A stretch of DNA of 64,000 bases from NCBI GenBank assembly GCA_963756185.1, contig CAVWMS010000001.1, positions 11,038 to 75,037 on the forward strand. The letters are read 5' to 3'. Made by a program: the position numbers and the translations under genes. Positions 460 to 12,143 of this stretch are shown here, piece after piece. The notes beneath the pieces were generated by a model. That model ran no database searches. It was not told where the DNA came from and saw only the letters and a program-made list of their open reading frames with translations. The stretch's first letter is position 1. Each line of letters opens with the position of its first letter. The DNA comes from an uncultured Verrucomicrobiae bacterium. GTDB taxonomy: Bacteria; Verrucomicrobiota; Verrucomicrobiia; Chthoniobacterales; Chthoniobacteraceae.

Positions 460-711
460 TCAATGATACTTCACCCAGGAATCGCGGACGATGTGCCCGA
501 TCCTGCCGCCCTCGAAATCCACGCGAATCGCGACGCCGATCAGCTTCTCCCAGCACGGCATGTCCAGCTCCGTCAGCAGGTCGAACACCGCCTCCGGCGC
601 AAAGCGCGCGATCAGCAGCCGATCCTGCGAATGCCGGATGTAAAGGGCCGCCTCGGCCTTGCACTTTTCATTGTATCCCAATCGGGTGGCGATGATCGTC
701 GCGGTATCCAT
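460..711 (-). CDS. Small hypothetical protein (83 aa).
   Basis: ORF in the same orientation, immediately upstream of the secreted-protein gene. No recognisable motif. Confidence 0.3.
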   Translation of the reverse strand: MDTATIIATRLGYNEKCKAEAALYIRHSQDRLLIARFAPEAVFDLLTELDMPCWEKLIGVAIRVDFEGGRIGHIVRDSWVKYH

Positions 712-722
712 GGCCGCCCATG

Positions 723-1958
723 TTACTGCGGCGCCGCCAGCCGTCCCATGAATAAAAACGCGCCCGTTTTATCGTCGCGAATCACGAAGAGAAACGGGTG
801 ATCCGCGCGAAACTCCGGCGGCGGTCCCTCAGGCCGCGCCATGGCCATCGCCATCACCACGCCGGTTGCCGCCGCGGCCTCGGTGCCCTGCTCGTTCACG
901 TCGACGAAGGCCTTGTGAATCACGTTGGAGATTGACAAGTCCTTGTTGCCGGTCATGCCGGAAAAATCCGCGCTGCCGCCGAAGGCATCGGTCATTCCCA
1001 GCGCTTGCAGTTCCGGCCCGAGCTCGAATTCTTCGGTTAACTGAAACTTCGGAATGGTGACGACGACCCTTTGGCGGTCCATGCCCTCCAGCGCGCCGGG
1101 CAGCTTTGCGATTTCCTTTTCCATCGCCGCCAGCCCATCCACGGCCTTGGGCAGCACGATGATCATTGATAGATCGTTGCCCGCGTAAGGCAGTTCCAAT
1201 GCCTGGAAGTTCTGGTCTTCCGTGTAACCAAATTCATCCGTCTGATGCATCATCGGCATGTTCTTCTGCTGGGTCGCGGTCATGTGGAACGGCTCGTCAT
1301 GGGTCGCCTTCTTACTAAACTGCGACGCCCATGTGCCCTTGAAGTAAATGGCATTGGTCAGCACCATTCGCGTCATCGATGTAAGTACTCCGGGGCCGAT
1401 CAAATTCTTGATCTTATCATTAGTCTGCTTTTCCACCCAGGAGTTGATTTTGTCGCGCGCGCCCGCCGCGTCATTTTTGAAATCGACATTCTCAACTCCC
1501 GCGCCGTAATTCGTCTTCAAGGCGTCGAGGAAGGCGGGCAGGAAAGTGTAGCTCTGCTCCGCCCACAGCGCATTGGCTATCGATAACTGGTAGCCGCGCG
1601 GCTGGCCCTCCGAGTCATTCGGCGCATTGAGCGCCGCGAGAAAGCTGCCGAAGTCCGCGGACACCGTTTTGCTTCCCGCGGGCAGGTGGAGCACCGCGGC
1701 CATTTGCGAGGCGGTGTCGCCGCTCGCGCCGGCCCAGGTCATCGCCAGCGCGGTTTCGATGCTGGCCGGTGAGAAAAAGAGATTCCCCTGGTCCTGGGCG
1801 GCCAGCTTTCCGTACAGGTCCGCGGCGAATGCGTTATTTGCATTGCCGATCCAAGCCGGCGCGTCGTTTGCCGTGGCGGTCATCGGTATCGCTCCGCAGT
1901 AGATATATCCCAATACGACTAAACTTAGCTTCCAGCGATGCGAAAGTCTATTTTTCAT
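723..1958 (-). CDS. Serpin (serine protease inhibitor family) with an N-terminal signal/anchor.
   Basis: Contains the serpin motifs FSPASIETALAMTWAGA, NAIYFKGTW(A)SQF and C-terminal PFLFVIRDDKTGAFLFMGRL. Start placed at the internal Met (MKNRLSHRWKLSLVVLGYIY). Confidence 0.85.
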   Translation of the reverse strand: MKNRLSHRWKLSLVVLGYIYCGAIPMTATANDAPAWIGNANNAFAADLYGKLAAQDQGNLFFSPASIETALAMTWAGASGDTASQMAAVLHLPAGSKTVSADFGSFLAALNAPNDSEGQPRGYQLSIANALWAEQSYTFLPAFLDALKTNYGAGVENVDFKNDAAGARDKINSWVEKQTNDKIKNLIGPGVLTSMTRMVLTNAIYFKGTWASQFSKKATHDEPFHMTATQQKNMPMMHQTDEFGYTEDQNFQALELPYAGNDLSMIIVLPKAVDGLAAMEKEIAKLPGALEGMDRQRVVVTIPKFQLTEEFELGPELQALGMTDAFGGSADFSGMTGNKDLSISNVIHKAFVDVNEQGTEAAAATGVVMAMAMARPEGPPPEFRADHPFLFVIRDDKTGAFLFMGRLAAPQ

Positions 1959-2037
1959 ACGTAATTCTCCGATCTCCAATGCTTGACACGCGTGAAGTTA
2001 TATCCCACCCTCCTCGACTCGAATCAAGAGAATCACT

Positions 2038-2877
2038 ATGAAACTCACCGGACGTCTCATACTCGTGTCGATCATTTTCACGACGGCCGCGGCGGTCTGG
2101 GCCGCCAGCGACGACAACGATCCGCTTTTTCCAAACGGACCCGGCATTTCCGTCGGCGGCGAAGCCGGGCAGGGGAACATCGATTCCCAGCCGACGCAAA
2201 CCACGGTGTACACGACCAACACCGTCACCACCAGTGTCGCGGCTCCTGCGACGCCGACACCCAGGCCCACAGGCAGTCCCACGGGCAGCCCCACCGGCAG
2301 TCCCACAGGCAGCCCGAGTGGAGATCCGGATACGGTTCTGAAGGGCAAGGCGGTAAAGGCGGTAAAACACGCGCTGGTGCTCACCGGTCCCAAGGTCGAG
2401 GATCCCACGGTGACGAAGACCTTTAGGACCAAGCATTTCGTTTCGGTGGATCGTCTCCAGCACAATGCGGGCGGCGGCGCCATCGCGGCCGCTTATTTCT
2501 TCACGCGCAATGTGGGCGTCTCCCTGGAAGGGGACTTCCTCGGCGGCAGCCAATATAACACGAACCTCACCGGCAACGTCATTCTCCGGTATCCGTTTGA
2601 GTTCGGCGAAAAATCTGTCTCTTCGGGCTATTCGAAGGATGGCAAGGATGACGGCAAGACGGTCATGTCCGGGCCCACCTGGGGCATTGCTCCCTATGTC
2701 CTCTTCGGCGGTGGCGGCCAGTGGGATGGAAGGGCCGAGGGCATCGGCGACGTGGGCGGCGGCCTCGAGTTTAAGTTCCAGCCGCATTGGGGCGTCTTCG
2801 TCGAAGGCCGCTGGGTCGTCCACGACTCCCGCGAAAGTTACGCCGCTGAGTCGGCCGGTTTGATGCTCGATTTCTAG
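2038..2877 (+). CDS. Outer-membrane beta-barrel protein with signal peptide and a (PTGS)4 linker repeat.
   Basis: Signal peptide MKLTGRLILVSIIFTTAAAVWA. G/Y/F-rich strands and a C-terminal ...AGLMLDF with terminal Phe, typical of OMP beta-barrels. 12-nt tandem repeat at about 2270-2320. Confidence 0.65.
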   Translation: MKLTGRLILVSIIFTTAAAVWAASDDNDPLFPNGPGISVGGEAGQGNIDSQPTQTTVYTTNTVTTSVAAPATPTPRPTGSPTGSPTGSPTGSPSGDPDTVLKGKAVKAVKHALVLTGPKVEDPTVTKTFRTKHFVSVDRLQHNAGGGAIAAAYFFTRNVGVSLEGDFLGGSQYNTNLTGNVILRYPFEFGEKSVSSGYSKDGKDDGKTVMSGPTWGIAPYVLFGGGGQWDGRAEGIGDVGGGLEFKFQPHWGVFVEGRWVVHDSRESYAAESAGLMLDF

Positions 2878-2905
2878 AAAATCGGCGAACGAGCAGACCA
2901 CGCGC

Positions 2906-3655
2906 TCATGGATGGCCAGGGGCGAGAGCGCCTTGCTGGCGCCATGCGTCGAGCAATTGCTCGATATCGGCGATCACGAGGTCCGGCGCCGGGTAATCCC
3001 GGGGAAATTCCTCATTGCCATTCCTCACCCAGGCCGCGGCGCAGCCGCAGTTCTTCGCCCCGGCGATATCGCGCAGCGGATGGTCCCCCACCAGGAGCGC
3101 GCGGGCGGGCTCGATGCCGAAGAGATCGAAGGCGCGACGGAACGATTTTGGCGAAGGCTTGATGCAGCGGGTCTCGGACGACCAGACAATGTGCTCGAAA
3201 CAGCCAAGGATGCCCGCGTTCGCCAGGTTTCGCTCGAAGACCTCCTTGCGCGCCCAGATATTTGAAATGACTCCCAGCCGATGCGTGGCCGCCATGCGGC
3301 GAATGGCATCCGCATGGCGCAGCGAGATGGAGCCAACCTCATGGAGCGCAACCAATTCATCAATCAATCGAGCCTCTTCGGCATCGAGGAACCTGCCTTC
3401 CGGCAAGTCCCGGAGCGCCTCAGAAACCGATGGAAATGAATCGTACCAACCCGGATCGCGGCCCAACTCGCTCAATCGTCTCACAAGGCCGCTCATCATG
3501 CCGTGCAGGCGTTCGCTCGAAAGATGCGCGCCACCGAGCCCGCGGTAAGTCGCAAAATAATCTTCCATGGGACCAAACCGGTCATTCGCAAACATGAAGG
3601 TCCGTCCCTGATCAAGGAAGATGACATCATACCTGTCGATAAAGCGGTCTATCAT
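2906..3655 (-). CDS. HAD-superfamily hydrolase.
   Basis: Motif I-like VIFLDQG and motif IV LVGDHPLRDIAGA (GDxxxD), with HAD-like spacing. Confidence 0.7.
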   Translation of the reverse strand: MIDRFIDRYDVIFLDQGRTFMFANDRFGPMEDYFATYRGLGGAHLSSERLHGMMSGLVRRLSELGRDPGWYDSFPSVSEALRDLPEGRFLDAEEARLIDELVALHEVGSISLRHADAIRRMAATHRLGVISNIWARKEVFERNLANAGILGCFEHIVWSSETRCIKPSPKSFRRAFDLFGIEPARALLVGDHPLRDIAGAKNCGCAAAWVRNGNEEFPRDYPAPDLVIADIEQLLDAWRQQGALAPGHP

Positions 3656-3673
3656 ATTCTTGCAGCCGGCCTG

Positions 3674-4087
3674 TTATCCGGAGAAATCGAAATCCAGGGC
3701 ATTGAAAACAATCCAATAGAGAAGCAAAGGAAGGATCATTGCAATGGTGCCGGCCAGGAGAATAACCCAAAAAAAACGGCCAAAGAAGAGCGACCAGGGG
3801 ATGAGATAGACAAAGAGCAATGGAAGAAGGAACAGGAACTGAAAGAACCACCGGAAGGGCCACTTATAAGTGAATAAGTAATCCGCGATCGATGCGACCG
3901 GAGTCACCACCAGCAGGCAAAGCATGGCGACAAACATGGCATTGATCAGCCAACCTGCCGCGAGAGCGCTCTCCGGATGAGCGGCAGCCTGATCCAACTG
4001 GATCGCAAACCCATGGAGCGACCCGGTCCCCGTAAAAATCCCCACGCACGCACAAAGCGCAATAAAATGCCGGACCAGCCGTTTCAT
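3674..4087 (-). CDS. Hypothetical integral membrane protein.
   Basis: 3-4 hydrophobic helices (FIALCACVGIF..., LLFVYLIPWSLFF..., VILLAGTIAMILPLLLYWIV). Start taken at the internal MKRLV; the longer ORF extends to 4156. Confidence 0.45.
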   Translation of the reverse strand: MKRLVRHFIALCACVGIFTGTGSLHGFAIQLDQAAAHPESALAAGWLINAMFVAMLCLLVVTPVASIADYLFTYKWPFRWFFQFLFLLPLLFVYLIPWSLFFGRFFWVILLAGTIAMILPLLLYWIVFNALDFDFSG

Positions 4088-4118
4088 CTTTCCATCTCCC
4101 TGTAACGCGTTTTCACCG

Positions 4119-4523
4119 CTACGCGTAAAGCAGTGTTTTGAATCCTGCCTGCTCAAAATGACGGTCGGCAGTCAATGCCTCAGCCAGCCCTTCGCGGTCC
4201 ATCACGACAAAGGAAATGCAGTCAGTCAGTGACCATTCCTTGTCTGGACGTGAGATGTAGAAATTGCAGCCGCGTTCGAACAAATCCGAATCCGGCGCGA
4301 CGATTTTTGCGTCGGACTGGTTGCGCAAAGCCGTGAGCACAAGTTCGAAGTTCTTCCGGCCATGGCTTGCTGAGACCGCGTTTGCAAACTCCAACAGAAC
4401 CCACGCAGTTGTCACCAGGGGTATCTTCAACTGGGTGTTCAATTCCATGGCGGATCGGTGATACTGATCGCGTGGATTGACCAGCGCTAGGAAGAACGCC
4501 GTATCGGCAAAGACCGGCTTCAT
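4119..4523 (-). CDS. vapC: PIN-domain toxin (VapC-like).
   Basis: N-terminus MKPVFADTAFFLAL... with a conserved acidic residue pattern and size about 134 aa. Overlaps the upstream small antitoxin-like ORF by 4 nt. Confidence 0.7.
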   Translation of the reverse strand: MKPVFADTAFFLALVNPRDQYHRSAMELNTQLKIPLVTTAWVLLEFANAVSASHGRKNFELVLTALRNQSDAKIVAPDSDLFERGCNFYISRPDKEWSLTDCISFVVMDREGLAEALTADRHFEQAGFKTLLYA

Positions 4524-4741
4524 CCGCGCTTGGGCGTCCCGTATAGGTAGTGATCGTGATTGAGCGAGAGGTCAGGGGGTAGATCATCGGCAGTGCCGGC
4601 AATTTCAAGCAATGCGGCGCCCCATCCGGTCCGGGGCTTTTCCGGCGCGGCAGCTTCCAGTTCGGCCAGCTTCTGCTTCACCAGCCGTAGGTCGGCAGGA
4701 TTCAGCTTTGGCAGTTCGGCGATGATCTCTTGGGTGCTCAT
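4520..4741 (-). CDS. Putative antitoxin / addiction-module component, partner of VapC.
   Basis: About 74 aa, MSTQEIIAELPKLNPADLRLVKQKLAELE, resembling 'putative addiction module component' proteins. Translationally coupled to the PIN gene. Confidence 0.55.
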   Translation of the reverse strand: MSTQEIIAELPKLNPADLRLVKQKLAELEAAAPEKPRTGWGAALLEIAGTADDLPPDLSLNHDHYLYGTPKRG

Positions 4742-4834
4742 TGAGCTCTCTCCGCTGGAATCAATGTGCGGCAACCGCATCTTGCTGTCAATGAAGCCGA
4801 AACCGTGTCTTTCGAGGACACGGCTGTGACCCCA

Positions 4835-5047
4835 TTACTCTCCCAAGCTGTCTGCGCAGGGAGAAGGCTTCGCCCCGCTGATCACGAGTTCCATCTCCAC
4901 AAAGCGCCCGGCCTTCGCATCGGCCATGCCTTGCTTGAACTCCTCCGGAATCCAGGAATCGTCATGTTCGACGACATACTTGGTCACTACGGCCCGCTCC
5001 TCGGGGGGCAGAGCCTTGAATTGCTCAATGATTTCAGCGGCGCTCAT
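4835..5047 (-). CDS. Small addiction-module-component-like protein.
   Basis: MSAAEIIEQFKALPPEERAVV..., the same family flavour as the 4520..4741 ORF. Confidence 0.45.
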   Translation of the reverse strand: MSAAEIIEQFKALPPEERAVVTKYVVEHDDSWIPEEFKQGMADAKAGRFVEMELVISGAKPSPCADSLGE

Positions 5048-5070
5048 GCCGGAATAACGCGTTTTTGAGG

Positions 5071-5325
5071 CTACGCCACCTTCTTGGGGAAGGCGCAGTG
5101 TTCGTCGAGCCACTTAGCCGTCTCATCCAGGCTGAGAATCTTTCCGATTTCGCACCATGCCCGCAGGGTGCCGGGCGAAAAGTCGAGGTCATCATCCACC
5201 CACACGGGTACTCCGTGAATATCGACGGTTGCCTTGTCCGACCGGTCAAAAGGGCGAAGGGGATTAATTCGAGGAGTGCCGACAAGATTTATAGGGAGCT
5301 CGTGATTACAGCGGCAGAATGACAT
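5071..5325 (-). CDS. Small hypothetical protein (84 aa), possible partner of the 4835..5047 ORF.
   Basis: ORF only. The start overlaps the stop of a start-less upstream fragment at 5306..5520. Confidence 0.35.
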   Translation of the reverse strand: MSFCRCNHELPINLVGTPRINPLRPFDRSDKATVDIHGVPVWVDDDLDFSPGTLRAWCEIGKILSLDETAKWLDEHCAFPKKVA

Positions 5326-5706
5326 CTCGAGCGCCGCGCTTCTTGAGCTTGCGGCGCGCGGCCTGGAGGATCATTTCGCGGAAACGGCCCTCGGCCTCGA
5401 GCGTGGCGCCTTTATCGTGAAGGTCGACAATCTTTCCGGTGAGATCGCGGCCTAGGCGGAATTGGCCCAGCCATTTGCCCGCCTCTTCCTGGGCCTGCTT
5501 CCAACTCAGCTATCCATGGGCGGGTCCTCCGGGCGTAAAGATTGCACGCGAACGAAATAGCTGGGCCACCCAGAAGGTGCAAGGGATGAAGCAAAATGAA
5601 GCATCTTTTTGCGCATTACCGCGCAGTCATCATCCGCCGAAAACTTCTCAATCCTCGCGTTTCCCTGGGGAAAGCAGCCCATGAATGGTTGATAGTGTCG
5701 CCAGCG

Positions 5707-5733
5707 ATGCTGCCTCGCTAGGACTCGAACCTA
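5707..5733. repeat. attR-like partial copy of the tRNA-Gln 3' end (27-bp direct repeat).
   Basis: Identical to 8166..8192. The upstream sequence does not fold into a tRNA. Confidence 0.7.
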
Positions 5734-5885
5734 TCGGAGTTAGGAGGCCTGGAGCACTAGCGGGCGGCTACGGGACATTTTGCTCAGGGGTTGGGACTGG
5801 CCGAGGAGAATTGCATGCGCGATGGGTGCGCGGTAATGGGCAAAAATTTGCTCCATTTTGCTCCGCGGGTTGGAGCGCTTCCGGT

Positions 5886-7250
5886 TCAGAAGGAAAATTC
5901 GATCTGGGGATCTTCGCCATCGTGGGGAGGGAAGAGGGCGAACCATTCCTGGGCGAGTTTCTTCGTTACGGGCTCGCCGGTGACCGTGTGGACGTTTTTG
6001 TATTCGCCGAGGACTTCTTTTGCGCTGGTGTTGCAGTCACGGGCGACGGCGGCGGCGTCGCCGGTTTGGGCGAAACGGTACCCGATGAAGCTGGAGCGGA
6101 GAGCGTTTTTGCGCCAGGGCATTACGGTCCAACGGGAGAGGCTGGCGGTGAAGGTCGAGAGTTGATCCTTGCCGCCGGGAGCGACGTTGCCGCGAGCGCC
6201 GGAGTTGCGCAAGTCGGTCAGCCAGGCGGCGAGGACCTCGGGAATCGGCGCGAGATAGCGGCGGCTGATCTTGCTCTGTTTCTTGTCGACCTCGATGGTC
6301 GACTCGGTCCAATCGAAGGCCTGCCAGTCCAATCGAAGGATGGCGGCGGTGCGCATTCCCGTGAAGGCGCCGATGGCGAGCCAGGGGAGCCATTCGGGCG
6401 CGCGGCGGCGAGTGGCCTTGAGATATGCGAGGAGCTGCGCGGGCGAGTAGATGGGATTGCCGCCCGTGACGACTTTGATTTCCTCGATTCCCTCGGCCGA
6501 GGTGGGAAGGTTTGGCAGAAGCCGCTTCGCGCGGGCCCACCGAAAGAGCGTGACCAGGCTGTCGCGGACCTGCTGCCGGCGGCGCGGGCTGGATTTTACA
6601 AAGCGGAGATTCTTCGGGTCTTTCTTTTTCTTCCTTGGATCGATCCTGAGATTGCGTCCGAGCCCGGCGATATAGAGGTCGAGGTCGGCGGGCGAGATGT
6701 CGGAGAGTTCGCGATTGGCGAAATGGCCGGCGGCGCGGGTCAGATCGTCTTCCATCTGGGCGAGATAGGCGTCCGAGAGGCCCTTGAGCTGCTTGGCCGC
6801 GAGGAAATCCTTCACGGTGTCGGTGAAGGTTTTTCCATGGGTGATGAGAGCGCCGGACGCGATGGCGTAGCGGGTGTAGAAATCGGCAAGCTGGCCGAGG
6901 CTGGCGCCCTTGCACTTTTCCAGGGCGGCGGCGTATTCGCGGCAGGCAACGTCGACCTGGATGCCGAGGGGCTGGAGGGCCTGGCGCGCGGCGAGATAGG
7001 AGCGATGGTCGGAGCCCTCGAGTTCTTCGAGGCGCCCGCTGAGGATTTTGTTGGAGACTTCCTGGAGGCGCCTGCGAAGGGATTCGATGGTGGAGGCCGA
7101 GGCCTGCCGGCGGATGGTGCCGTCCATCCACCAGGTCCGGAGGCGGCCGCCGGCGACGCGGATGAGGGGAAAAGTGACGCGGCCGACGCGCAACTCGGAG
7201 CGTTCGGGCCTTGCGCGATCGAGGAGACGGAGCGGCTGGGGAGACTTCAT
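5886..7250 (-). CDS. int: Tyrosine-type site-specific recombinase / phage integrase.
   Basis: 454 aa. The C-terminal catalytic region has ...GMRTAAILRLDW... (Arg-I box), ...LRSSF... and a Tyr near the C-terminus (VLGEYKNV). Sits next to the tRNA-derived repeat. Confidence 0.75.
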   Translation of the reverse strand: MKSPQPLRLLDRARPERSELRVGRVTFPLIRVAGGRLRTWWMDGTIRRQASASTIESLRRRLQEVSNKILSGRLEELEGSDHRSYLAARQALQPLGIQVDVACREYAAALEKCKGASLGQLADFYTRYAIASGALITHGKTFTDTVKDFLAAKQLKGLSDAYLAQMEDDLTRAAGHFANRELSDISPADLDLYIAGLGRNLRIDPRKKKKDPKNLRFVKSSPRRRQQVRDSLVTLFRWARAKRLLPNLPTSAEGIEEIKVVTGGNPIYSPAQLLAYLKATRRRAPEWLPWLAIGAFTGMRTAAILRLDWQAFDWTESTIEVDKKQSKISRRYLAPIPEVLAAWLTDLRNSGARGNVAPGGKDQLSTFTASLSRWTVMPWRKNALRSSFIGYRFAQTGDAAAVARDCNTSAKEVLGEYKNVHTVTGEPVTKKLAQEWFALFPPHDGEDPQIEFSF

Positions 7251-7579
7251 CCGTGGGCGATGATGGCGCTGTTGATGGCGTCGACGAGGGCGGCGACGGC
7301 GTGCTTGTTGAAGCTGGTCCAGGCCGCGGTTTCGCCGGCGGAGGTGCGGACAATGGCGGTCCAGGAGGGCACGCGGATGAGCAATGCGGCGGCGAGAAGG
7401 AAGCAGGCAATGGCCACGAAGCGGGCAACGTCGCTGCCAAAGAGGCAGGCGGCGCCGATCGCCATGGCAAGGAGGCCGGCCCTGGCGCTGGGATTTTTTT
7501 TCCTGGCGAGCTCGACGGAGCCGATGGAGGCGATGGCGACGGTTTTGCGGCCGGCAACGAGACGGCAGTCGGTGACCAT
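7247..7579 (-). CDS. Small hydrophobic protein between the RHH gene and the integrase.
   Basis: Only the C-terminal part of ORF 7247..7966 looks like real membrane sequence (LLAMAIGAACLF..., FVAIACFLLAAALLI). Start placed at the internal MVTDCRL. Confidence 0.35.
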   Translation of the reverse strand: MVTDCRLVAGRKTVAIASIGSVELARKKNPSARAGLLAMAIGAACLFGSDVARFVAIACFLLAAALLIRVPSWTAIVRTSAGETAAWTSFNKHAVAALVDAINSAIIAHG

Positions 7580-7623
7580 GACGCCCGGGGCGCGGAAGAG
7601 GACGGTCTCGGAGAATTGCTGAT

Positions 7624-7944
7624 TCACGGCTTTCGTTTTCGAAGGGCTTCCCGAATTCGAGAGGGAGTGGCGCGCGGGGTCGGGCCGGGATCGGCAGAGG
7701 GTTCGTTGAGGCGCTGGGCCTCTTCGGAGAGGGGAGCAGTTAAGCGAGAAGGGGCCGCGATAACCGGTTTTTTTTCGCTGATCTTTTGGGCGACGATTTT
7801 GCGGAGTTCGCGGACGACCCATTTTGACCGGGAGCGGTCGTCCTGGGCGGCGAGCTGATCGATTTTGGCCAGCAATTCCCTGGAAAGGGAAATGGTCATG
7901 GTGGTCTGGGTTTCGGCCCTGCTGTGACTCTTCTCGTTTGCCAT
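7624..7944 (-). CDS. Ribbon-helix-helix (CopG/Arc-like) DNA-binding protein, candidate excisionase or regulator.
   Basis: MTISLSRELLAKIDQLAAQDDRSRSKWVVRELRKIV fits the beta-strand plus two-helix RHH pattern. Confidence 0.55.
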   Translation of the reverse strand: MANEKSHSRAETQTTMTISLSRELLAKIDQLAAQDDRSRSKWVVRELRKIVAQKISEKKPVIAAPSRLTAPLSEEAQRLNEPSADPGPTPRATPSRIREALRKRKP

Positions 7945-8168
7945 GGCAACGGGGAGGGTTCAACAAATTTTGTTGTTGGTCAATAATTATTGTTGACTGA
8001 CCGTAAGACGGCTGCTTACGGTGTGGTCATGGCAAATTCCTCTGTTCAAATTTGCGGCGCTCGAGGTGTTTGCGCTGAGGCTGGCTGGCGCGGCGCCGGA
8101 GGCGTAGCTGATTGCTCCAAATTGCTCCACGGAAGGGCGGAGCAGGTGCAAACCCTGATAAATACATG

Positions 8169-8240
8169 CTGCCTCGCTAGGACTCGAACCTAGACAAGCA
8201 GAGTCAGAATCTGCTGTGCTGCCAATTACACCACGAGGCA
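8169..8240 (-). tRNA. tRNA-Gln (anticodon CTG).
   Basis: Reverse complement is TGCCTCG-TG-GTGTAATTGGCAGCAC-A-GCAGATTCTGACTCTGC-TTGTC-TAGGTTCGAGTCCTA-CGAGGCA-G. It has a 7-bp acceptor stem (U1:A72), GTTCGAGTC T-loop and anticodon loop TTCTGAC. CCA is not encoded. Confidence 0.8.
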
Positions 8241-8453
8241 ATCGAGCCCGGGACGTTAAAACGAGGGGGGCGGGGCGTCCACTTCTTTTTGGATTTGGGA
8301 AACCGCTCCCCGGCAGCGGCTTGGGCGGCCGGGACGCGCGCCATCCTTCCCTCTCACCGGCCAGGACCGTGGTTGCGGTCAGGGAAAATCGTGCGGGCGC
8401 AACGGGGCAAATTTAGCATTCCTTTTTCGGTGGGAGTCTTGTGGGATGGAGGC

Positions 8454-10028
8454 ATGTCGGAACAGTCACTTTGGCAACGGTACCAGACCCACCTGGTGCG
8501 TTATCACGGTCTGGGCATCTGGCTGGATATCAGCAGGATACGCTTTGGCGACGGATTTTTCGAAGCAATGACCGCGAAGGCGGAGGAGGCCTTCGCGCGG
8601 ATGAAGGAGCTCGAGGCGGGAGCGATCGCCAACCCGGACGAGGGGAGAATGGTGGGGCATTATTGGCTGCGGAATCCGGCACTGGCGCCCACGGCGCAAA
8701 TCCGCGACGAGATCGAGACGACCCGCGAGCTCATCCTCGGGTTCGCCTCGCAGGCGCACGCGGGGACCATCGCCGGCAGCGGCGGGAAATTCACCGATCT
8801 GTTGCTGATCGGCATCGGCGGCTCGGCGTTGGGGCCGCAGTTCATCTCCGAGGCGCTCGGGACCACGCAGGACAAGATGCGCGTCCATTTCCTGGACAAC
8901 ACGGACCCGGATGGATTCGACCGGGTATTCGAAAAGCTCGGCGGCCTGGAGACGACGCTGACCGTGGTGATTTCGAAATCCGGCGGCACAAAGGAAACGC
9001 GCAACGGCATGCTGGAGACGCAGGCGCGGTACGAGGCGCAGGGGCTCACGTTCGGCAAGCACGCGGTCGCCGTCACCGGCGCGGGGAGCGAGCTGGACAA
9101 GGTGGCGGAAAAAGGGTCGTGGCTGCGCCGGTTCCCGATGTGGGATTGGGTGGGCGGGCGCACGTCGGTGATGAGCGCGGTGGGTCTTGTGCCAATGGCG
9201 CTGCAAGGGCTGGATATCGAGCAATTCCTGGCCGGCGCCGCGGCCATGGACGCGAAGACGCGCGTGGGCAAGATCGAGGAGAACGCCTCGATGCTGCTGG
9301 CGCTGATGTGGTATTTCGCCGGAAACGGCAAGGGGGCGAAGGACATGGTGATCCTGCCGTACAAGGACCGGCTCGTTTTGTTTTCAAAGTATTTGCAGCA
9401 ACTGGTGATGGAATCGCTGGGCAAGGAAAAGGACCTGGCCGGAAACGTCGTGCACCAGGGCATCGCGGTATATGGGAACAAAGGCTCGACCGACCAGCAC
9501 GCCTACGTGCAGCAATTGCGCGACGGCGTGCCGAATTTTTTCGCCACCTTCATCGAAGTGCGCAAGGACCGCGACAGCGCGGCATTCGATGTCGAGCCGG
9601 GCGTGACCAGCGGCGATTACCTGCAAGGATTTCTCCGCGGCACCCGCGCGGCGCTCTATGAAAACGGGCGCGACTCGATCACCATCTCGGTGTCGCACGT
9701 CGATGCCTTCACCGTGGGCGCGATGATCGCGCTGTACGAGCGGTCGGTCGGCTATTACGGTTCGCTGGTCAATATCAACGCGTATCATCAGCCCGGAGTC
9801 GAAGCCGGGAAGAAGGCGGCCGCGCGGATCCTCGCATTGCAGGGGAAAGTGCGCGCGGCGCTGGAGGCGGCCAGCGGCAGGCCGAGGACGGCGGAGCAAT
9901 TGGCCGCGGAGACCGCCTCCGACCCCGAGGACGTATTTCACGTTTTGAATCATCTCGCGGCGAACGCGTCAAATATTGCCGCCCAGGACGCGGATGCCCC
10001 CGGCCAGCAGACGTTTACATTGCGATAA
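8454..10028 (+). CDS. pgi: Glucose-6-phosphate isomerase.
   Basis: [21 protein letters not shown] and other PGI signatures. Start at [11 protein letters not shown]. The in-window ORF 8441..9661 is an alternate-frame artefact. Confidence 0.9.
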
Positions 10029-10755: not shown

Positions 10756-12143
10756 ATGAAGAAAATAGTTGTCATCGACGATGAGCGGCCGGTGTTGGCC
10801 GACGCTGCAGGCGCTGCTCGAGCGGCATGGGTATTCCGTGCAACTGGCCGGGACTGCGAGCGCGGGCCTCGGGCTCATCGAGAAGACGCAGCCGGAGCTG
10901 GTGCTCCTGGACCTGGGGCTGCCGGATGCGGCCGGGCCTCGAGACGCTGGCCAGGATCAGGCAGGACCATCCGGACATCGCGGTCATCATCATCACGGCG
11001 CAGGACTCGCTCAGCAATGCCATCGAGTCGATCAAGCTGGGCGCGTTCCATTTCATCTCGAAGCCCTACGCGCCCGAGGAATTGCTCAACGTCATCGTGC
11101 GCGCGCTCGAGCAGCGCGACCTGGTAAAGGACCGGGACCAACTGATGGCGAAGACGGCGGAGCTGGCGCGCCAGCTCGAGGAGGCGCAGATGCAGCTCGC
11201 GCCGACGGTCACCAGCCGGCGCATGCGCGAAATCCACGAACTGGTGGCGCGCGTCGCGCCGAGCGACGCAAATGTGCTCATTACCGGCGAGAGCGGCGTG
11301 GGCAAGGAAGTGGTGGCGAACCAGATTCACCGGCTCAGCACCCGGCAGGCCGGCCTGATGGTGAAGTTGAATTGCGCGGCCTTTCCGCAGAACATGATCG
11401 AGAGCGAGTTGTTCGGCTATGTGAAAGGGGCGTTCACGGGCGCGGCGAATGATTTTCCGGGGATGATCCACGAGGCCGCGGGCGGCACGCTCTTCCTGGA
11501 CGAGATCGCGGAGATGCCGCCGGATTTGCAGACCCGATTCCTGCGGGTGCTGCAGGACCGCGAGTATCGCTCTCTCGGCAGCACGAAAACGGTGAAGGCC
11601 GATTTCCGGCTCGTCGCGGCCACCAACCGGCCCGTCCAGGCGGCGCTGGCCGGCGGCGCGCTGCGGCAGGATTTGTATTACCGGCTCAAGACGTTCGAAA
11701 TGGAGATACCCCCGCTGCGGGAGCGGCGCGAGGATATTCCCGCGCTGGCGCTGCAATTCGCGCGCCGGTTCGCCGCGCAGATGAACAAAGGCGAGCCGCG
11801 CTTTTCGCCGGAGGCGTTCCGGGTGTTGATGGATTACAATTGGCCTGGCAACGTGCGCGAGCTGCAAAACGCGGTCGAGCACAGCATCGTGCTGTGCGAA
11901 AGCGGCTCGGTAATGCCGAAACATCTCCCACGCGAGCTGCGCCTGCCGGCGATCCTGCAGGAGGCCGCGGTGCAATCGATCAACGGCGGGGGGAACCTGA
12001 AGCTGGACGTGCGGGAACGCGAGGCGATCCTGCAAGCCCTGGCGCAATGCCACGGCAATAAAAAGAAGGCGGCGGCCGTGCTCGGCATCCACCGTCCGAC
12101 CTTGTACTCGAAAATGAAACGGTACGGGATCGAATTGAAGTGA
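10756..12143 (+). pseudogene. Sigma-54-dependent response regulator (NtrC family: REC + AAA+ + Fis-type HTH) with two +1 frameshifts in the receiver domain, at about 10795 and about 10925.
   Basis: MKKIVVIDDERPVL is in frame 1. TLQALLERHGYSV...LVLLDLGLPD is in frame 2. GLETLARIRQDHPDIAVIIITAQDS and onward is in frame 0. Downstream it is intact: GESGVGKEVVA, GAFTGA, ESELFGY, NWPGNVRELQN and a C-terminal HTH. Confidence 0.6.

Follow-up and report, generated by a model that had tools for sequence, protein, structure and literature searches.

A 2.46-kb integrative element at a tRNA-Gln(CTG) gene of an uncultured Verrucomicrobiae bacterium, plausibly a reduced form of a larger temperate-phage-like element

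The tRNA islands and prophages of the lambda, P4, P2 and HP1 type integrate at the 3' end of a tRNA gene and restore that gene by means of a direct repeat. They carry int beside one of the att sites and repeated arm-type sites on both arms, and their integrases consist of a small N-terminal beta-sheet domain, a core-binding domain and a catalytic domain. We have analyzed an element that shares these features, found in a stretch of 64,000 nt (the window) from an uncultured Verrucomicrobiae bacterium of the family Chthoniobacteraceae (GenBank assembly GCA_963756185.1, contig CAVWMS010000001.1, positions 11,038 to 75,037). The element occupies positions 5707-8192 of the window and is integrated site-specifically at the 3' end of a tRNA-Gln(CTG) gene. 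It is ordinary in kind and unusually small in form. Unlike the systems named above it is just 2.46 kb long, has three genes and lacks a winged-helix or helix-turn-helix (HTH) excisionase gene; its integrase, also unlike theirs, comes from a clade in which Asn stands at the His position of HxxR and GNS (CNTS in this protein) replaces GHS. Elements of another phylum that sit at tRNA genes likewise have a tyrosine recombinase and no recognizable hallmark genes outside the integration module; in the present element, whose host is Chthoniobacterales-like by PGI similarity, no excisionase is identified. From comparison with related loci we favor, with modest confidence, the view that it is a deletion derivative of a larger temperate-phage-like element, reduced to the lysogeny and integration operon and both att sites.

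The element is delimited by an exact 27-bp repeat, ATGCTGCCTCGCTAGGACTCGAACCTA. The first-pass annotation of this DNA had reported the repeat at 5707-5733 and 8166-8192, and our searches recovered the two exact copies at precisely these positions, with no others in the window at up to 3 mismatches; none of 100 shuffled sequences gave a match. The second copy lies, as had also been proposed, inside an intact tRNA-Gln(CTG) gene, which ARAGORN predicts to be the sole tRNA gene of the window, and an Rfam scan of positions 3000-9000 detected nothing but this tRNA. Its sequence, written on the tRNA strand, is TAGG-TTCGAGT-CCTA-GCGAGGCA-G-CAT. The repeat starts at the second T-stem base, takes in the T-loop, the acceptor strand and the discriminator, and stops 2-3 nt beyond the gene. 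Between the repeats are 2,432 bp (a 2.46-kb unit). Direct repeats of a tRNA 3' end, one within the intact tRNA and the other a displaced 3' fragment, thus flank a tyrosine integrase gene, with arm-type repeats at both ends, and the signature of tRNA-targeted integration recognized in the first pass is confirmed. Base composition does not set the element apart from its host, the G+C content being 0.62-0.68 in the element and 0.60-0.65 in the flanking chromosome.

That the repeat is a chance match, or a duplication introduced during assembly, with no integration event behind it is so improbable that we discount it. In addition to the result with shuffled sequences, the repeat falls exactly on the 3' end of a tRNA gene that has an integrase gene as its neighbor, and the same boundary is seen in a different tRNA fragment in a related locus, L002 (see below). 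The distal junction is reproduced in an independent Logan assembly contig (L001), which is 100% identical to window positions 533-7426 and crosses that junction. No third att copy, including one that would bound the toxin-antitoxin block to the left of the element, was found in the window at up to 9 mismatches in 27.

The coordinates of the element and of neighboring features are presented in Table 1. The three genes between the repeats are all on the minus strand, in the same direction as the tRNA gene, and encode a ribbon-helix-helix (RHH) protein, a DUF6232 protein and the integrase. The stop codon of the RHH gene overlaps the start of the DUF6232 gene (GTGA), and the stop codon of the latter overlaps the start of int (ATGA), which makes the three genes a single operon with translational coupling. 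The middle gene had been described as a 110-aa hydrophobic open reading frame (ORF). Its product is indeed a hydrophobic membrane protein, of 126 aa rather than 110 when read from the GTG start (7247-7627), and is identical to the protein on record for the source contig. The family that it matches, phrog_23009, is a phage protein family of unknown function; a homologue search found only the protein itself, and a literature search found no paper mentioning DUF6232. The RHH protein also has weak matches to antitoxin-type RHH families. The element does not have the attributes of an integrative and mobilizable element (IME): searches of its 3 ORFs against Pfam, NCBIfam and PHROG gave no match to a conjugation function such as a relaxase or coupling protein, while an oriT is not the kind of feature that sequence alone reveals.

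Table 1. Features of the integrated element and its left-hand neighborhood (window coordinates)
Feature	Position	Strand	Basis
Intact tRNA-Gln(CTG), integration target; 3' end toward the element	8168..8240	-	ARAGORN; Rfam RF00005, 61 bits, 8169-8240
attL, tRNA-proximal core copy: T-stem, T-loop (8182-8188), acceptor 3' strand, discriminator, 2-3 nt beyond	8166..8192	.	exact 27-bp repeat
attR, distal core copy: displaced tRNA 3' fragment, T-loop 5723-5729	5707..5733	.	exact 27-bp repeat; junction spanned by L001
Tandem arm-type candidate sites GGAGCAATTTGGAGCAA, tRNA-proximal P arm, 37 nt from core	8112..8128	-	GGAGCAA-N3-GGAGCAA pattern
Tandem arm-type candidate sites GGAGCAAAATGGAGCAA, int-proximal P' arm, 118 nt from T-loop, just past int stop	5848..5864	-	same motif; analogues in L002 and L089
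Switch region	7961..8031	.	palindrome CAACAAATTTTGTTG (7961-7975), TCAATAATTATTG (7980-7992), TTGTTGAC, hairpin, ATG 8029
RHH (CopG/Arc-like) DNA-binding protein, 106 aa, first operon gene	7624..7944	-	Pfam RHH_1 21.4 bits; Arc-like PHROGs
DUF6232 small protein, 126 aa, GTG start, two hydrophobic segments	7247..7627	-	Pfam DUF6232 44 bits; phrog_23009 4e-10
Tyrosine integrase, 454 aa, last operon gene	5886..7250	-	PHROG_1 integrase 1.7e-19; alignment, PDB profile, AlphaFold2/Foldseek
Inverted copy, outside the element, of 42-nt int-proximal arm segment 5821-5862	5590..5631	.	86-89% complementary
PIN toxin	4119-4523		part of low-G+C block
73-aa partner upstream of PIN toxin	4520-4741		
Second 70-aa ORF, N-terminus similar to 73-aa partner, no toxin after it	4835-5047		
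Short ORF	5071-5205 or 5071-5325		
Hydrophobic protein, 137-160 aa	3674-4156		

The integrase gene assigned to the element in the first pass stands on both its tyrosine-recombinase fold and its invariant residues. Its closest relatives (12 were found in a word-indexed search) are 37-47% identical and come from Chthoniobacteraceae-type metagenome bins. In a 13-sequence alignment of the family R300, K327, N382, R385 and Y417 are invariant; alignment to the XerA motifs identifies R300, K327, R385 and Y417 as Arg-I, Lys, Arg-II and the Tyr nucleophile. A PDB profile search (XerA/XerC-like match, 4e-7) aligned KNALRHS with HQLRHS of XerA, which puts Asn382 on the HxxR His. Accordingly, the His of the classic R-H-R-Y tetrad is replaced by Asn382, and the sequence CNTS stands in place of GHS, with its His/Trp. 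The protein scores 18.8 bits against Pfam Phage_integrase, below the cut-off of 27.1, and the Pfam scan gave no match to P4-type N-terminal domain families. The AlphaFold2 model (pLDDT 79) shows an N-terminal four-stranded sheet and helix, followed by core-binding/helical and catalytic domains, and its best Foldseek matches are XerA, Tn1549 Int, lambda Int, XerH and IntI, each with probability 1.0. In this model the beta-sheet and helix formed by residues ~18-70 appear arm-binding-like.

The substitution of the HxxR His is shared by most of the family. A full hidden Markov model search assigned 5,709 clusters to the integrase clade at E<=1e-30. Asn is found at the position of this His in 135 of 138 top-ranking related cluster representatives (P0024-P0169), and GNS replaces GHS, at integrase residues 407-409, in 125 of 141; the clade motif is WxxN-x-L-R-H-S together with G-N-S where other tyrosine recombinases have HxxR and GHS. 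Judged from these alignments, Asn382 is a trait of a large clade and not decay or a lesion, and the missing His is therefore no sign of a dead enzyme. Occasional substitutions at the HxxR His are tolerated in active tyrosine recombinases. The first-pass annotation had held that loss of the R-H-R-Y tetrad would count against its proposal; formally the tetrad is lost, and the prevalence of Asn in the clade makes this a poor test. We found no characterization of the Asn-substituted clade, and no match to the integrase among cultured phage genomes. More distant relatives (22-32% identity) are found at the ends of many IMG/VR prophage contigs.

Candidate arm-type sites are present on both arms. The pattern GGAGCAA-N3-GGAGCAA has two exact occurrences in the 64 kb, at 5848-5864 and 8112-8128, both on the int strand; a further single candidate site, GAGCAAAAT, is located at ~5778-5787. 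The tandem sites are good candidates for arm-type sites, and it is also possible that the RHH protein would bind there instead. Similar sites are found in related loci. In L002, whose integrase (P0002) is 45% identical, int is followed by the tandem 10-bp sites GCGCAACAAA/ACGCAACACC (5106-5125), and 113 nt past these is a tRNA 3' fragment, TAGGTTCGAATCCTACCGCTGGAGCCA, which begins from the same T-stem position, TAGG. In L089 (integrase P0005) int is followed by the tandem 10-bp sites GTAGCAGAAT/GTAGCAAGTT (3760-3779), and 101 nt past these is an intact, convergent tRNA-Val gene. A fourth case is provided by sites outside the present element, at 5588-5607, which are dealt with below. As derived from the coordinates, the distance from the arm sites to the T-loop is 114-118 nt in all four cases (window 5848-5864, 5588-5607, L002 and L089), and the tRNA-derived core is in sense orientation to int in two of them and antisense in the other two. 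From this constant distance we infer that strand exchange would be centered on the T-loop, between the inverted halves of the T-stem; the crossover is probably in or next to the 7-nt T-loop.

Some further observations concern the tRNA sites of the relatives. L089 contains a 12-nt exact repeat, AATCGTCCGAAA (3799-3810 and 3945-3956), that brackets the whole tRNA-Val gene, one copy overlapping the tRNA 5' end; it may be a chance repeat (E ~0.02). More distant integrase relatives are found beside tRNA-Thr and tRNA-Pro genes, and the tRNA-Pro locus includes a TrbI gene. A complete element of 5.5 kb occupies a tRNA-Thr(TGT) gene in L091; a 50-bp repeat (5355-5404 and 10876-10925, 49/50 identical) marks its two ends, and it contains ~9 small ORFs, one of them with DUF5681. 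Its integrase (P0010) is ~29% identical to the one described here.

In the lysogeny switches of P2 and 186 the repressor gene is co-transcribed with int (C-int in P2), and a divergent gene, cox or apl, faces this operon. RHH regulators are found in phage P22 as the Arc/Mnt pair. Both systems provide useful comparisons for loci related to the element. Orthologues of the RHH protein, 43-63% identical over the RHH core, were identified in L002, L089, L175 and L176, and in 4 of 4 loci the gene is divergent from a second small RHH gene (56-59 aa). The small partner gene is followed in L002, L089 and L176 by a gene for a protein of 106-132 aa. The L089 protein (L089_106) matches HTH_17 with 21 bits, where Pfam requires 27, and a PHROG excisionase family with 8.7e-5. 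Those of L002 and L176 (L002_132 and L176_130) match no family, are 57% identical to each other and are homologous to L089_106 (25%, E 4e-5). Further downstream genes in L002 match phage protein families. The relatives thus resemble P2 and 186 in having a regulator and int in one operon, facing a divergent small DNA-binding protein and an excisionase-like HTH protein, and their two-RHH switch resembles the Arc/Mnt pair. They differ from P2 and 186 in that the regulators are RHH rather than HTH proteins and in that a variable envelope-type gene is placed between regulator and int. In the window the divergent half is missing altogether.

The DNA of the divergent switch is nevertheless retained in the window. 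A hairpin, ACCGTAAG-N7-CTTACGGT, is found at 8000-8022, followed by an ATG at 8029 that is directed away from the RHH gene, and there is a sigma-70-like match on the + strand at 7960-7987. Positions 7990-8036 align with the DNA upstream of the partner RHH gene of L176, through hairpin and ATG, with a score of 45 compared to 17 +/- 2.4 for shuffled sequences (z ~12). The similarity stops after the ATG, and the P-arm sites begin ~80 bp further on. The hairpin is conserved just upstream of the divergent partner's start codon (window 8000-8022, L176 ~1655-1690), different hairpins are found at the same place in L002 and L089, and the sequence AATAAT(T)ATTG in the switch region is common to the window, L089 and L002. 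The conserved hairpin is probably one operator of the switch. A search of 7945-8300 for relics of the partner RHH gene or the excisionase-like gene gave no significant protein-level match, and only the upstream DNA is conserved. The ATG at 8029 would accordingly mark the start of a lost divergent operon, and the switch DNA retained without its partner genes may be read as a deletion scar. A 54-aa ORF (8029-8193, + strand) runs from this ATG through the P arm into the att core; its two ends (MANSSVQI..., ...RAEQVQTLI) are faintly similar to the partner RHH proteins, at a level that is not significant.

If the scar is read in this way, the RHH protein is more likely to be an autoregulator than an excisionase, the usual excisionase candidate having been lost. 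Of the two roles that the first pass had offered for this protein, regulator is retained and excisionase is not favored, as in the relatives the excisionase-like candidate is a different gene, which is absent here. The RHH protein, whose orthologues face a partner RHH, is left as the only candidate for a directionality factor in the element, and it may have a dual role as repressor and directionality factor; judged from gene order it is probably the autoregulator of an RHH-X-int operon.

The X position of this operon is variable. The gene that follows the RHH gene is unrelated in each relative (DUF6232 at window 7247-7627, L002 3027-3746, L089 1855-2454, L175 2654-3307), and its product always has a hydrophobic N-terminal or internal segment; the N-termini are signal-peptide-like in L002 and L089, and in L175 a protein with a hydrophobic segment follows the RHH protein. 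From this comparison the middle slot looks like a swappable moron or cargo position in the lysogeny operon, and the DUF6232 gene is probably such a cargo or moron gene. The presence of a different hydrophobic or signal-peptide-like protein after the RHH protein in each relative would also suit an immobile fossil with genes that now serve the host. The RHH and DUF6232 proteins would then be a regulator and membrane effector pair with an exclusion, defence or toxin-antitoxin-like function, and the integrase would be idle or would serve some other recombination task. The RHH operon of L175, which is without an integrase of this family, the match of the DUF6232 protein to a phage family of unknown function and the weak matches of the RHH protein to antitoxin-type families all fit this proposal. 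Yet no defence-system model was matched, the RHH protein is conserved together with the integrase and not with the middle gene, and the perfect repeats and conserved arm sites argue for a recombination module that is recent or still usable. We consider the proposal improbable. As a simple toxin-antitoxin or defence module the RHH and DUF6232 genes were rejected, since a comparison of PADLOC defence-system models with the element gave no match and the middle gene does not accompany the RHH gene from locus to locus.

The deletion-derivative interpretation, which we regard as slightly more probable than not, can be described as follows. A heterobivalent tyrosine integrase would have recombined attP with the tRNA gene, the attP core mimicking the T-arm and acceptor end; the tRNA would thereby have been rebuilt and the displaced 3' fragment left at the far end. 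The RHH protein would autoregulate the operon from the palindromic operators, and the RHH-X-int operon would represent one half of a divergent two-RHH switch, the other half having been deleted beyond its start codon. This interpretation is preferred because the four relatives with RHH orthologues have the divergent operon, whereas the window keeps its promoter, hairpin and ATG but not its genes. The first-pass annotation had left a choice between a decayed remnant after deletion of the cargo and a minimal mobilizable integrase-excisionase cassette; the missing partner operon and the retained switch DNA lend more support to a remnant, and the excisionase part of the cassette is not favored. 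The recombination module looks intact by sequence, so that Int-mediated integration, and perhaps inefficient excision, would be possible. The element is without the family's usual excisionase candidate and without a visible means of replication or transfer.

Several points count against a deletion. No complete close relative was recovered that could show the size of a parent element or the structure of its far end. A single deletion must have ended within ~80 bp (between 8029 and 8112-8128) and spared the promoter, the operators and both arms, and such tidy ends would equally fit a naturally compact element. What remains shows no sign of decay: none of the three genes is disrupted, the two repeats match perfectly and the G+C content is host-like. 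The proposed role of the RHH protein comes from gene order, and the excisionase-like assignment in the relatives from the weak matches of one protein, L089_106. Finally, homologues of the excisionase-like protein are known from L002, L089 and L176, and the fourth locus, L175, is the one in which the RHH operon has no integrase of this family.

The alternative to which these points lead is a naturally minimal, self-sufficient integrative element. In this case Int and an RHH protein acting as both repressor and directionality factor would suffice, DUF6232 would be the sole cargo, and transfer would depend on helpers, vesicles or transformation. Such double function has precedents in Cox of P2 and Apl of 186, which are both repressors and recombination directionality factors or excisionases. 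The perfect att cores, the exact tandem sites in both arms, operators at 175-230 bp from the attL core and three intact, translationally coupled genes are all as expected of a working element of this kind; L002 and L089 also have the RHH-X-int operon, with a middle gene that varies, and the distant relative at tRNA-Thr, with its 50-bp repeats, is complete at 5.5 kb. These points are opposed by the partner operon, present in 4 of 4 loci with RHH orthologues and absent from the window despite the retained promoter, hairpin and ATG, by the absence of the excisionase-like gene of the relatives, and by the failure to find a second copy. We therefore view a naturally minimal element as rather unlikely, though it is the first of the alternatives to be considered.

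The searches for an empty site, a circular form or further copies were of limited help. A comparison of neighboring PGI genes, with one genome per species, gave best relatives at 68-73% PGI identity, none of which has a tRNA-Gln upstream of PGI, and is uninformative with respect to an empty site. Exact-protein look-ups with the integrase and the PIN toxin returned nothing beyond the source genome and a single, identical Logan contig; the integrase and the DUF6232 protein are likewise found in the source genome only. The 27-mer was found in metagenome contigs at a single unrelated tRNA-Gln locus, and in viral contigs not at all. At that locus (L088, WNEZ01127979.1) a tRNA-Gln(CTG) gene (383-456) with an identical 27-nt 3' end lies on an otherwise unrelated metagenome contig and is followed by a non-coding stretch of ~480 nt and a 276-aa ORF of unknown function. 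L088 may be another occupied site.

There are indications that the tRNA gene has been a target more than once. The 42-nt arm segment next to int is repeated in inverted orientation outside the element (Table 1). The two copies straddle the attR core, and the 19-mer pattern they share occurs nowhere else in the window. No homology was found between the spacers that separate each copy from the attR core; the inverted repeat is therefore a discrete 42-nt unit, and a mirrored element end, which was considered as its source, was ruled out by the unrelated spacers. The outside copy has the orientation and spacing seen in L089 (tandem sites, 99 nt, antisense tRNA end) and is probably the int-proximal arm left behind by a related element that occupied this tRNA earlier. 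That older element would have been situated to the left and would have abutted the tRNA with its int end, and the present element would later have integrated into the tRNA by accretion. No second integrase pseudogene or relic was found to the left of 5707 or elsewhere in the window.

The two arm copies also offer a possible functional alternative. In the int transcript they are predicted to pair into a long-range stem (z = -6.2 compared to shuffled sequences), which could form in the integrated state only. A more elaborate proposal builds on it, namely a working, self-sufficient 'nano-island' in which a single RHH protein represses the operon and directs excision, one envelope gene is swappable, the element moves between tRNA sites, and the attR-spanning stem allows int expression to sense the state of integration. 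If true, the stem in the int mRNA of the integrated state would be the mirror image of lambda sib retroregulation. We judge this combination of functions quite improbable.

Accretion at one att site has been modeled for cis-mobilizable elements (CIMEs) and IMEs, and CIMEs are elements that have lost the integrase (Guedon et al. 2017, PMC5704250). The present locus resembles a CIME as an att-bounded remnant at a tRNA gene, with signs of a second, older element beside the distal repeat. It differs in that the element keeps an apparently intact integrase gene and in that the older block is not bounded by a third att copy. This block, of low G+C content (~3250-5750, 0.52-0.59), extends from a HAD hydrolase gene to the distal repeat; it contains the PIN toxin gene and the other small ORFs of Table 1, is probably an older island and may be the remains of the earlier element. 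Toxin-antitoxin modules had been placed immediately outside the distal repeat in the first pass; this placement does not hold, the nearest clear pair (PIN toxin 4119-4523 and its partner 4520-4741) being ~1-1.6 kb away. Closer to the element, 134 nt past the displaced tRNA end, is a terminator-like hairpin, CTGGGTGGCCCAG, with a T-rich tail (5561-5573, - strand), which could be the original tRNA terminator or a terminator of the int operon.

The locus is a small and cleanly delimited case of a common process, in which integration at a tRNA gene, reduction and possibly accretion follow one another, in a poorly sampled lineage of the Verrucomicrobiota. It provides a compact set of att sites, arm sites and integrase for a large and essentially uncharacterized clade of thousands of clusters. 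The constant spacing of ~115 nt between arm sites and T-loop, found with both orientations of the core, suggests the place of strand exchange, and the comparison with related loci points to a lysogeny operon with a swappable slot for envelope genes. Should Int and the RHH protein alone ever prove enough for excision and reintegration, the element would rank with the smallest autonomous site-specific integrative units and could serve as a convenient tool.

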